The notes under the pieces were generated by a model that worked only from the letters and a program-made list of their open reading frames with translations, was not told the origin of the DNA and did not search any database. A DNA stretch of 41,751 nt from Actinomycetota bacterium (GTDB lineage: Bacteria > Actinomycetota > Actinomycetes > Nanopelagicales > Nanopelagicaceae), in NCBI GenBank assembly GCA_009917815.1, contig RGER01000001.1:1-41751 (forward strand), read 5' to 3'. How positions within the stretch are numbered: position 1 is the stretch's first letter; every line of letters starts with the position of its first letter. This document shows positions 27,968 to 30,795 of this stretch, one piece after another. The position numbers and the translations under genes were made by a program.

Positions 27968-28609
27968 ATGACAACGCGAGTCTTTGTTGTGGATGACCAC
28001 GAGTTGGTACGTAAGGGTTTAATCGATCTCATCAACTTTGAGGATGATCTCATTGTGGTTGGGAGCTCTGGAAGTTGTGCTGAGGCTAAAGCAACTTTTA
28101 AGACTTTAGATTTTGATGTCGCGGTTCTTGACGTTCGCCTTCCAGATGGAAGCGGTGTAGAACTCTGTCGAGAAATTCTGACTAATTGTTCTGACGTTAA
28201 AGTACTAATGCTGACCTCGTTCTCCGATGACGAAGCACTTCTCGGCGCCATTTTGGGTGGAGCTAGTGGTTTTGTCATCAAGGATATTAAGAATTTGGAA
28301 TTACTCGGTGCTATCCGTCAAGTTGCATCGGGTGAATCCCTGCTCAGCACCGCATCTGTTTCTGAAGTCACCTCACGACTACGCAGGAATAACAATCCGG
28401 CGAGTGAAATCTATGAACTGACAGATCAAGAGCAACGAGTCCTGGAATTTATTGGTCAAGGTATGACAAATCGCGAGATTGCATCCACGATGTTTTTGGC
28501 CGAGAAGACCATCAAGAATTACGTATCATCGCTTCTTCGCAAATTGGGGCTAGAACGCAGAACGCAAGCCGCAGGTCTCGCAGTCCGCCTCGGGGTAGAT
28601 AGGCACTAG
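27968..28609 (+). CDS. dosR: NarL/LuxR-family response regulator, DosR/DevR-like
   Basis: Near-colinear with M. tuberculosis DevR as I recall it: VDDHELVRKGL, DVAVLDVRLPDGSGVELCREIL, ASGFVIKDIK, MFLAEKTIKNYVSSLLRKLGLERRTQAA. Confidence 0.9.
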   Translation: MTTRVFVVDDHELVRKGLIDLINFEDDLIVVGSSGSCAEAKATFKTLDFDVAVLDVRLPDGSGVELCREILTNCSDVKVLMLTSFSDDEALLGAILGGASGFVIKDIKNLELLGAIRQVASGESLLSTASVSEVTSRLRRNNNPASEIYELTDQEQRVLEFIGQGMTNREIASTMFLAEKTIKNYVSSLLRKLGLERRTQAAGLAVRLGVDRH

Positions 28610-30795
28610 AGACTGCCCTGCCATACAGCTTTAGTTCCCGCCGATCCCATACCAAAGATTTCAAAACTGCCTTGTCGCTCTAAGGCTCTACTCTCCAAAT
28701 TGAGTAGACCACTTTTGCGATGACTTGCTACAAAACCCTTGCCATTATCGGTAACAGTTACCACGCAGTAAGTTTTGTTGGTGGAAAGAAGTAGCGAGAT
28801 ATCTGTCGCTCCGGCATGACGAATAGCGTTAGTAATCAGTTCCCGGATTACCGCAATAATATGAGTAGCAAGCTCAGGACTCACTAAGACATTTACTGGA
28901 CCTTCAAATTCGCAACGTATCTGGAAACCTGCGCTTGAATGAAGTGCATCTACCTCTCTCACGACTTGCGACCGAATGTCCAAGAGTGGCAGAGCTGCTT
29001 GAAGCTCGAAAATAGTATTCCTAATTTGCGAAATTGTATGGTCCAGATTGTCGACGCTCTCTTGAACACTTTCTGCGTCATCAACTGCCAAACTGCTTCG
29101 CTTGCCTAGAGTTTGCAACATCATCCCAGTAGCAAAGAGTCTCTGTATTACCAAATCATGAAGATCTCTCGCAATTCTCTCTCGCTCCGCAAGCACGCTC
29201 ATTTGGCTCTGTGCGATATGTCCACGGTAACTATCAATGGCGACCCCGGCGGCCGACGCTAAAACAATAACGAGTTGTTCATCTTCTTCAGTGAATTCCT
29301 CACCATTTCGCTTCTGCGTGAGATAGAGACTTCCGTAAATCTCATCTCGGATTCTGATGGGAACACCCAAAAAACCAGCCATTGATGGATGACCTTCAGG
29401 AAATCCCACTGATGCTGGATGCTCTCGGATTTCCTTTACGCGCAGTGGCTGAGGATGTTCAAGCAAGTGACCAAGAAGGCCTTTACCTTCCGGAAAAGAA
29501 GCAATCTCGTCGGCACTTTCTTCGCTAATTCCCACGTAGGTGAATTCTTCAAGAGTTCCATCTGGGCTCAATGCGCCGAGGGCACCGTACATACAGGCGG
29601 CTATAGCGCCAGTCCATCCGATGACGCCCCCAGCTTGGCGGGGTGGAAAGATCATCGGCATCTGTTTGAACGTGCTCGCATTACCTACGCCAGCAAAGAA
29701 GAAGATCGCCATCATGCCCCAAAAGAAGTTCATGAAGTCATCGCTACTTCCCGGTGAGAGCTGTCCCGATGTATATAGCGCAGACCCTGCGATCCCGACG
29801 CCTGAGAAGAAGGTCAGAATTCCGCCGCCTAGGCGATCGGCAACTGGCCCACTAATTACGCGCGCCGCCGATCCGACAAGGGGGCCAAAGAACGCGTACT
29901 TAACCGGGTCGGGCGCATTTGCAAAGTCACCATAGAGATTCTTAATAAGGAGCCCGAATTGACCGGCAAGCCCCGAGAAAGTTCCGAATGTCATCATGTA
30001 AAGCAATGTCATCAGCCAGGTGTCCTTATTCCGAAAGATATCCAGTTGATCTCGTACGCCGCGTGAGGTAACTGGAACGCTTTGCAACATTTTCCACGCG
30101 ATTAACACTGCGACTAATACAAATGGCACCCAAATCAAACCAGCATTCTGGTACCAAACGTCCTTACTCACTCCTTTAGCATTATCTACAAAGTGCTGTG
30201 GGGCTCCTAGTGTTGCTCCAAACATTGCCGAGCCAACGAGAATGGGTGTGAAGAATTGAATAACACTCACACCAAAGTTTCCGATGCCCGCCTGCACTCC
30301 AAGCGCTAAACCTTGCTTAGATTTTGGAAAGAAGTATGAAGTACTGGGCATGAAACCGGAGAAGATTCCGCCACCAATTCCGGAAAGGAATGCCAACAGC
30401 ATTAATGCGAAATATGGAGTGGCTGGAGAGCGAACTGCAAAGGACCAACCAATGAGCGGCAATAGCAATAGCGCTGTTGAAAAAGTAACCAGTTTACGAG
30501 TGCCCAAGATGGGAGGTAAGAACATCCAGATAAGGCGAAGCCCGCCTCCAGCTAAACCAGGCATGGCCGCCAGCCAGTAGAGCTCCTTCTTGCTGAGGTC
30601 GAATCCGAGGTTATTGAGCTTGGGTGCTAATGCTGAAACCAAGAACCAACTCATGAATCCGAGTGTCAATGCGTACGTAGTAATCCATAACGTTTTCCAT
30701 GAAATTCTCGAATCCCACTGACCCTCAACATTCGGATCCCACGATTTAATCCATTCAGCGGAGTTCTCTCGGGTTTTTTGATTTATTGAGGACAT
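28606..30795 (-). CDS. fusion protein: NarK-type nitrate/nitrite porter (TM1 to mid-TM11) + DosS/DosT-like haem-GAF domain + HisKA_3/HATPase_c histidine kinase
   Basis: A single uninterrupted ORF. NarK motifs ([38 protein letters not shown]) run into MYGALGAL...[37 protein letters not shown]. These are followed by the H-box [11 protein letters not shown], the N-box [10 protein letters not shown] and DNGKGF. I prefer the ATG at 30795 (GGAG RBS, 1 nt after the narK stop). Confidence 0.85.
   Translation of the reverse strand: [729 protein letters not shown]

Follow-up and report, generated by a model that had tools for sequence, protein, structure and literature searches.

The window (the whole stretch of DNA analysed, 41,751 nucleotides) contains a single long open reading frame (ORF) in which a NarK-type transporter sequence runs directly into a haem-GAF histidine kinase sequence. 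The features of this ORF were as follows.

28606..30795, minus strand: fused ORF, 729 aa from the ATG at 30795 (the version on record)
Alternative starts of the fused ORF, minus strand: ATG at 30807 (733 aa) and TTG at 30831 (741 aa)
29596..30807, minus strand: narK2 remnant, codons 1-404 of a 450-codon gene
29595..29596, minus strand: deletion junction, between ...GWTGAIAA and CMYGALGAL...
28606..29595, minus strand: kinase remnant, codons 41-369 of a 369-codon dosT-like gene, with its stop codon
29233..29589, minus strand: truncated haem-type GAF domain, homologue of DosT/DosS GAF-A
29389-29391, minus strand: proximal His codon (GHPSM), aligned with DosT His147 / DosS His149
29323-29325, minus strand: distal Tyr codon (SLYLT), aligned with Tyr169 / Tyr171
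28999..29187, minus strand: HisKA_3 dimerisation and phospho-acceptor domain, H-box His codon at 29158-29160
28630..28866, minus strand: HATPase_c ATP-binding domain, similar to DevS 3ZXO

The ORF was uninterrupted from 30831 to 28606 on the minus strand and encoded 729-741 aa depending on the start codon. The ATG at 30807 gives a MELDM start, the same as that of the 450-aa orthologue P0001. In the fused ORF the narK2 remnant continues in frame into what is left of the dosT-like kinase gene, and one chain bears the NarK-type MFS, GAF, HisKA_3, and HATPase_c domains. A sequence-only reading had assigned this architecture to 28606-30795, and the ORF call, Pfam, and NCBIfam agreed with it. In 741-aa numbering, Pfam placed MFS_1 at 56-419 (E = 2.9e-15), GAF_2 at 415-533 (E = 4.5e-14, covering only profile positions 22-136 of 136), HisKA_3 at 549-611, and HATPase_c at 656-734. 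NCBIfam placed TIGR00886 (NarK family) at 46-412 (E = 1e-80); at 271.6 bits this match fell short of the curated cut-off of 311.7, and the NarU model was covered only at positions 4-374 of 462. The 729-aa fusion protein is already deposited in NCBI nr.

The narK2 remnant retained TM1-TM10 and the cytoplasmic part of TM11, and ended at the end of nitrate signature motif 2 (NS2). The outer part of TM11 and the whole of TM12 were absent. E. coli NarK binds its substrate through two arginines, R89 in TM2 and R305 in TM8. In the phmmer alignment to 4JR9 and 4U4T both were kept, with GGLRLIW corresponding to R89 and SAARVISG to R305. The intact orthologue P0001, which is 99% identical to the NarK half, matched E. 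coli NarK 4JR9 with E = 3.6e-66, so the proposal of a NarK-type N-terminal half with both arginines held. The NS1 region (TM5) aligned well to E. coli NarK; the NS2 region was present up to the breakpoint, and its alignment, in a second domain, was weak. By this weak alignment the breakpoint lies near residue 418 of E. coli NarK. Positions 417/418 of NS2 have Ala in place of Gly, here and in the intact orthologues alike. The helix bearing NS2 was cut directly after the motif.

In E. coli NarK, NS1 lies in TM5 and NS2 comprises the TM11 glycines 408/414/417/418 (PMC4432589). A single G408A or G418A change in TM11 already abolishes nitrate uptake (PMC4432589), and here half of TM11 and all of TM12 are gone; the fusion product is therefore expected to be inactive as a transporter. 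A complete 12-TM MFS fold, with TM1-6 and TM7-12 bundles, was lacking in the fusion and present in P0001 and in the near-identical contigs L001 and L002.

The intact orthologue of the kinase half matched DosT GAF-A 2VZW with E = 9.1e-45 and DevS/DosS GAF-A (2W3D, 2Y8H) with E of about 1e-40, which confirmed the DosS/DosT-type identity proposed earlier. In the ungapped alignment to 2VZW, the His of GHPSM fell on H147 and the Tyr of SLYLT on Y169, so the residues equivalent to DosS H149 and Y171 were kept, as had been claimed. The roles and numbering of the haem His and Tyr in DosS/DosT are established (PMC4082495). The kinase has Gly at the position of DosT Gly85, and not the Glu87 residue of DosS. 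Residues 21-40 of the intact kinase, deleted here, aligned to the first ~20 residues (helix alpha1) of the DosT/DosS GAF-A crystal constructs. The GAF-A fold as defined by these constructs (DosT 61-208, DosS 63-210) was thus complete in the intact orthologue and incomplete in the fusion.

The HisKA_3 H-box and HATPase_c core, the latter parts of the proposed kinase that Pfam also recovered, were present together with a cognate DosR/DevR-type regulator of the NarL family. The fusion product is expected to be crippled or mislocalised as a kinase. A second GAF domain had been thought lost in the fusion. Only one GAF domain was found in the intact kinase and in its 120 closest relatives (354-402 aa), and the lack of GAF-B is a native single-GAF trait that the deletion did not cause.

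Comparison with L001 and L002 resolved the junction. L001 was 99.76% and 99.34% identical to the window on the two sides of the junction, and L002 99.92% and 99.75%; both were collinear with it except for exactly 287 bp, which are present in L001 (11214-11500) and in L002 and absent from the window. These 287 bp hold the last 46 narK2 codons with the stop codon, the spacer, which measures 26 nt in L001, and kinase codons 1-40 with GAF helix alpha1. With these bases gone, codon 404 of narK2 is followed directly by codon 41 of the kinase. Since the narK2 and kinase frames are offset by 2 and 287 equals 2 modulo 3, the reading frame is kept; a random deletion stays in frame by chance in one case out of three.

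The deleted sequence, readable in the near-identical contigs, supported the earlier suggestion of a deletion-fusion inside the TM11 glycine motif. The join at 29595/29596 falls within the predicted 29590-29600, and NarK TM12 and the first GAF helix, noted as missing, both lie within the 287 bp. The proposal that the deletion occurred at a shared GA(L/I)GA peptide failed, as the breakpoints share only a 2-bp microhomology (CT) at the DNA level. A 7-mer direct repeat, TGGACTG, near both breakpoints was also considered and rejected, since the join lies elsewhere. At the protein level, the junction makes a 19-residue hydrophobic stretch (mean Kyte-Doolittle 1.56). If inserted into the membrane, this stretch would bury GAF strand beta1, and the kinase would then lie outside the cell, away from ATP. 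The frame is kept and nothing is lost from the kinase's catalytic motifs, its haem-related His and Tyr, or the two NarK arginines, so that on sequence alone the product may have residual or new activity.

We looked for the same arrangement in relatives. In two same-species contigs (L001, L002) and six sibling-species contigs, the 450-aa narK2 was complete, and the 369-aa kinase was encoded separately after a short gap. All eight of these close loci (kinase at least 95% identical in amino acids) had a full-length narK2 followed by a kinase matched from residue 1, with 29-35 nt between the two protein matches. Two distant loci (57-60%) showed the same narK2-kinase adjacency, again unfused. The best 120 NarK2 relatives were all 429-452 aa long, and none of the best 120 kinase relatives (354-402 aa) had an MFS domain. 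No MFS-kinase protein was found among the top 150 of 1.84 billion representatives, and no fused relative among 160 genomic loci; these searches cover the best 120-150 matches each, so that a natural fusion would be missed if it were very distant and scored under about 243 bits. This contig is the single one for which the exact fusion protein was recorded (40 of the 101 members of its 90% cluster were read, 15 being listed). A fusion of a complete transporter to a kinase is thus not conserved among the orthologues: these searches gave no fused one, and the transporter domain here is truncated. Separate narK2 and dosS-type genes, which the sequence-only reading had named, together with an unexpressed ORF, as the finding that would speak against a functional system, occurred in every relative examined.

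An ancestral fusion, later split in the relatives by a gain of 287 bp, would reverse the direction of this event. Of the two segments encoded by the 287 bp, the TM11b/TM12 one shows weak alignment to E. coli NarK TM11-TM12, and the other, the GAF alpha1 helix, is homologous to DosT/DosS; both occur in every relative down to 57% identity. As the supposedly inserted segment is homologous to distant NarK and DosT proteins, we consider this account refuted and its probability practically nil. The fusion is very probably the product of a 287-bp deletion private to this contig, and not an evolved transporter-sensor.

The deletion itself may be biological or technical. We think it somewhat more probable than not that it is a real, very recent, strain-level loss of function. 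An assembly or library artefact is clearly less probable, yet a serious competitor; the 287-bp gap would then exist in no cell, and the narK2 and kinase of the organism would be normal. Such a gap could come from a read that was itself chimeric, from the assembler taking the wrong path at a strain bubble, or from faulty polishing of a MAG contig. It would fit a junction that was seen on a single contig and that has a mere 2 bp of microhomology. The junction 24-mer CTATAGCCGCCTGTATGTACGGTG gave 0 matches in JGI metagenome contigs, where the intact allele was present, which also points toward an artefact. The nearest strain, L002, has both genes intact and is separated from this contig by just 10 substitutions over 6.6 kb. 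The region is also a local hotspot at which haplotypes vary between strains, the kind of place where assemblers change path.

On the other side, De Bruijn assemblers should require junction-spanning reads and would normally prune rare chimeric paths. The remaining contig was gap-free and collinear with L001 and L002, and a 287-bp loss without repeats is atypical of a collapse error. A cluster of SNPs beside the junction was considered as a sign of chimeric assembly and rejected, because this haplotype is shared with the intact L002 and is not tied to the deletion.

Whether the deletion is real or not, a chimera that is dead or an artefact is the most likely outcome. A transporter-sensor chimera coupling nitrate transport to redox sensing, as had been proposed, was not supported, every relative examined being unfused, and we regard a functional chimera of any kind as very unlikely. 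Such a newborn protein would have 10 or 11 TM helices and a membrane-tethered haem kinase, possibly with NarK-state/DosR-type coupling. The in-frame join, the retained H-box, ATP-binding domain, haem His and Tyr, and both NarK arginines, and the intact cognate regulator and DosR-like boxes agree with it. However, it shows zero conservation among the relatives examined, essential structural elements (TM11b and TM12, GAF alpha1) are cut, the hydrophobic stretch, if inserted, places the kinase outside the cell, and a chance in-frame join has a prior of one third; its probability is slight indeed. A newborn tethered DosT-like kinase would need, at once, a real deletion, an expressed chimera, a half-TM11 stub that stays cytoplasmic, and an alpha1-less GAF that still binds haem, a combination we likewise hold to be highly improbable. 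If it were true, the 10-TM NarK remnant with its kinase would show a domain fusion at the moment of its origin in wild cells, and be possible raw material for a transporter-coupled redox sensor.

The genes and sites around the fused ORF were as follows.

27968..28609, plus strand: DevR/DosR-like response regulator (receiver and LuxR/GerE HTH), best match 3C3W
30797..32107, minus strand: narK1, intact 436-aa NarK-family MFS transporter
32166..32179: DosR-box-like palindrome GGGTCTTAAGTCCC, in the narK1/narG divergent intergenic region
32203..32216: second DosR-box-like palindrome GGGTCTTTAGACCC, 37 bp from the first
32229..38867, plus strand: narGHJI respiratory nitrate reductase operon, intact
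32229-35936 narG, 35936-37492 narH, 37489-38130 narJ, and 38127-38867 narI, plus strand

The regulator and kinase genes converge, and their 3' ends overlap by 4 nt. The best match of the regulator was DevR 3C3W (E = 1.4e-65, against 5e-35 for the next family), which bore out its earlier description as a convergent DosR-like regulator. The narK1-narK2-kinase transcription unit starts with narK1. Across the ~8.7 kb of L001 that cover narGHJI, one SNP was the only difference. The 10.9 kb of L001 upstream of the tract gave 1 SNP, and narGHJI and narK1 were otherwise undamaged. The two DosR-like boxes were conserved. DosR boxes were not enriched across the window (10 matches against 14.7 expected), so the scan carries meaning only in the location and conservation of its two best sites.

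In its normal form the locus makes up a compact island for nitrate respiration in a freshwater Nanopelagicales actinobacterium. The order is narK1, narK2, and a soluble single-GAF DosT-like kinase, with the DosR-like regulator convergent and the narGHJI operon divergent behind the two DosR-like boxes. By homology, the kinase would bind haem through His109 and be switched by O2/NO/CO. The kinase would in turn phosphorylate the DosR-like regulator, and the latter would switch on both nar operons under hypoxia. On the residues and matches given above, the native system is a single-GAF DosT/DosR-type pair and not a NarX/NarL-type nitrate sensor.

The locus holds no evolved NarK-DosS chimera, and the ORF is unfit for propagation in databases as a new architecture. 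Fusions seen on a single contig of a MAG need comparison with near-identical contigs before they are interpreted. What the Nanopelagicales island offers is a pair built on a putative single-GAF DosT/DosR-type haem sensor, with DosR-like boxes before narK1 and narG. It predicts that these abundant freshwater bacteria would start nitrate respiration on O2/NO status and not on nitrate itself.

Compared with known systems, the CbrA/CrbS proteins (SSSF/SLC5 transporter with kinase; PMC7918813) resemble the fused ORF only superficially, in that a polytopic, transporter-like N-terminal part precedes a cytoplasmic histidine kinase on one chain. In those proteins the transporter fold is complete, a linker is present, and the fusion is conserved across genera, whereas here both domains are truncated, no linker is present, and the searches made gave no second example. 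NarK of Paracoccus denitrificans (PMC5217062) is a natural gene fusion in a narK1-narK2 pair, and among the 1.84 billion representatives searched there was also a tandem-MFS protein of 910 aa (P0282). The P. denitrificans protein consists of two complete 12-TM units and is functional, whereas the partner here is a kinase and the NarK is incomplete.

A nitrate-respiration island has already been described in the freshwater Nanopelagicales bacterium Planktophila vernalis (PMC12817590). GI5 of strain MKE-45 holds a respiratory nitrate reductase, a two-component system, and two NarK copies (PMC12817590). Compared by gene content, it matches L001, L002, and the window; it differs in that the sensor here is DosT-type (haem-GAF) and not NarX-type, and in the private deletion.

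A further parallel was with the DosT/DosS (DevS)-DosR system of M. tuberculosis. The native kinase here has one GAF domain without GAF-B, is 369 aa long compared with about 573-578 aa, and has only about 20 residues before GAF-A. A spacer of 26 nt separates its gene from narK2, which directly precedes it; in this contig the gene has lost its first 40 codons, and haem binding by the kinase is predicted. The two systems share the homology of the haem-binding GAF-A with its His and Tyr, the HisKA_3 and HATPase_c domains, and a DevR-like regulator, and the DosR-like palindromes upstream of narK and narG resemble the DosR control of narK2 in M. tuberculosis.

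The ORF analysis of the window showed a single open frame on the minus strand, from 30831 to 28606, with the following starts:

30831, (−), TTG start of the fused ORF, 741 aa
30807, (−), ATG start, 733 aa, the start used by orthologues
30795, (−), ATG start, 729 aa, the deposited form, in agreement with the sequence-only reading

Domain scans gave the following matches on the fused ORF (741-aa numbering):

residues 56–419, MFS_1 (Pfam)
residues 415–533, GAF_2 (Pfam)
residues 549–611, HisKA_3 (Pfam)
residues 656–734, HATPase_c (Pfam)
residues 46–412, NarK-family model TIGR00886 (NCBIfam, E = 1e-80)

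All four parts claimed by the sequence-only reading (NarK-type MFS, GAF, HisKA_3, and HATPase_c) were present on one chain. The TIGR00886 score (271.6 bits) was below the cut-off (311.7), coverage of the NarU model (NCBIfam) stopped at position 374/462, and the GAF_2 match (Pfam) began at profile position 22/136; the transporter and sensor halves both appear clipped in these scans. The residues proposed for ligand binding were also found. P0001, an intact 450-aa NarK2 orthologue 99% identical to the NarK half, matched E. coli NarK (4JR9, E = 3.6e-66), and both R89 and R305 aligned with Arg. The GAF domain was a close homologue of DosT GAF-A (2VZW, E = 9.1e-45) and DevS/DosS (~1e-40). In ungapped alignment, the GHPSM His (putative haem ligand) fell on DosT H147/DosS H149 and the SLYLT Tyr (distal) on Y169 (DosT)/Y171 (DosS), residues whose haem-pocket roles are described (PMC4082495).

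The same-species contig L001 bore out, to the base, the proposal that the junction arose by deletion-fusion. Its gene order is narK1, narK2 (450 aa), a 26-nt spacer, a separate 369-aa GAF-HisKA_3-HATPase_c kinase, and the convergent regulator, with narGHJI upstream and divergent. The window was collinear with L001 (99.76% over 11,213 bp and 99.34% over 1,973 bp), and the sole break was L001 11214–11500 (287 bp), which is missing from the window. This segment comprises the codons for the final 46 NarK2 residues (FGPFIFG...SVRS), the narK2 stop codon with the 26-nt spacer, and the codons for the first 40 kinase residues (VTVDDNRL...AVLIVD). The join is in frame because the narK2 and kinase frames are offset by 2 and 287 = 2 mod 3; the chance of a random deletion keeping the frame is 1/3. 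We somewhat favor a real deletion in the organism, as the rest of the contig shows perfect collinearity, short-read graph assemblers require reads spanning a join, and the locus lies in a flexible genomic island, a setting in which decay is to be expected.

When the whole fused ORF was searched against 5.8 billion protein clusters, no fused relative was observed among the best 120 matches, which were all stand-alone NarK proteins (429–452 aa, covering 52–59% of the query), with P0001 (450 aa, 99% identical) at the top. The only recorded contig with the identical 729-aa protein is the window's own, and the 14 other members listed from its 90% cluster (101 members) were all 442–450 aa. For the kinase half, the 120 nearest relatives (all 354–402 aa) lacked an MFS domain. 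Among the top 150 matches of an exhaustive phmmer search with the fusion over 1.84 billion representatives, none covered both halves; the long ones were multi-GAF or PAS-GAF kinases, a tandem NarK-NarK protein (P0282), and P0273, a 530-aa NarK-like protein with a MgtE_N match. P0273 showed a weak MFS_1 match at 36–190, MgtE_N (MgtE intracellular N domain) at 188–277, and a C-terminal part (280–502) matching the NarK half (query residues 204–418); a second chimera or a true insertion could account for this architecture.

At the nucleotide level, the 287 bp were intact in L002, from an independent freshwater metagenome, which carried 3 + 7 substitutions versus the window in 6.6 kb. Six sibling-species loci (L003–L006, L082, and L084; ~89% nucleotide identity) had a complete narK2 and a kinase from residue 1, with a 35-nt gap separating the two protein matches, and the distant loci L007 and L083 (kinase 57–60% identical) showed the same adjacency, unfused. 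The junction 24-mer was not found in JGI metagenome contigs, where the intact allele was found. As far as the collections searched show, the deletion is private to this contig. An assembly artefact has a lesser but real likelihood, given the single contig, the minimal microhomology (only the dinucleotide CT at the breakpoint, window 29595/29596), and the strain variability of the region. Versus L001, 38 clustered SNPs, nearly all synonymous, flank the junction (narK2 3′ end and GAF region):

L001 10930–11179, window ~29878–29629, SNP cluster
L001 11649–11778, window ~29446–29317, SNP cluster

Upstream of this tract there was 1 SNP in 10.9 kb of L001. The cluster was considered as a sign of a chimeric assembly path and rejected, since intact L002 carries the same haplotype; it therefore reflects normal differences between alleles that have nothing to do with the deletion, and has the look of a short tract recombined between strains. 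narK1, narGHJI, and the regulator were unaffected, and this near identity (1 SNP/10.9 kb) indicates an event that is very recent or non-biological.

A weak alignment to 4U4T pairs NarK2 G394...A404 with NarK G408...G418, where the TM11 glycines of nitrate signature 2 lie. The transport cycle is driven by TM10/TM11 bending, and a single G408A or G418A change is enough to abolish nitrate uptake (Fukuda et al., PMC4432589). The chimera's NarK sequence stops right at this motif; the rest of TM11 and the entire TM12 are gone, and transport would be lost. LacY is destabilised by C-terminal helix truncations. Kinase residues 21–40 align to the first ~20 residues (N-terminal helix α1) of the DosT/DosS GAF-A crystal constructs, and loss of this helix should expose one GAF sheet face. 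The junction makes a 19-residue stretch with a mean hydropathy of 1.56, comparable to true TM helices of the same protein. Insertion of this stretch would bury GAF strand β1 in the membrane and place the kinase outside the cell, away from ATP; without insertion, the result is a 10-TM remnant with a damaged GAF. Separate production of the kinase is unlikely, since the internal Met just past the junction lacks a preceding Shine-Dalgarno-like sequence. A functional chimera is highly improbable, and the claim of a new transporter-sensor system was unsupported, as the related genomes examined keep narK2 and the dosS-type kinase separate. The fused ORF is nothing new as a system; it is a deletion scar or misjoin.

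The native system is a DosT/DosR-type two-component pair within a nitrate-respiration island. The convergent regulator was DosR-like as proposed, its top match being DevR/DosR (3C3W, E = 1.4e-65; next family 5e-35). The regulator (+) and kinase (−) stop codons overlap by 4 nt (window 28606–28609), likewise in L001. The narK2 start (ATG 30807, MELDM) and the narK1 stop share 11 nt (window 30797–30807), which suggests translational coupling within a narK1-narK2-kinase operon. A neighbouring 452-aa ORF (window 26553–27911, +) reads in translation as carrying the VILDEAD motif of DEAD-box helicases and an extended C-terminal tail rich in Gly/Arg/Ser/Pro. The 121-bp divergent narK1/narG region holds two palindromes, 37 bp apart:

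32166–32179, narK1/narG intergenic, DosR-box-like palindrome GGGTCTTAAGTCCC
32203–32216, narK1/narG intergenic, DosR-box-like palindrome GGGTCTTTAGACCC

Both are similar to the M. tuberculosis DosR box TTSGGGACTWWAGTCCCSAA (PMC2275270); the count of such matches across the window was not above chance. Both were unchanged in the six sibling-species loci while adjacent intergenic bases vary, and the two distant loci keep a single related box, AGGTACAAAGACCC. The pattern points to regulation of the two nar operons by a DosR-type protein. By homology, a likely mechanism is that the haem kinase, in its deoxy or NO/CO-bound state, phosphorylates the DosR-like regulator, which in turn switches on the two operons when oxygen is limiting.

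The native sensor is a natural single-GAF "mini-DosT" of 354–402 aa without GAF-B (L001 11380–12489; P0136, P0150–P0268), in contrast to the two-GAF classical proteins DosS and DosT (PMC4082495). It occurs widely across the Nanopelagicales (at least 120 clusters, 57–97% identity). The island of Planktophila vernalis MKE-45 contains NarGHJI, a two-component system, and two NarK copies (PMC12817590), and the window's island matches it in those components. That paper's label for the island's regulators is "the Nar two-component system" (PMC12817590), whereas the sensor is of the haem-GAF DosT type, not the NarX type.
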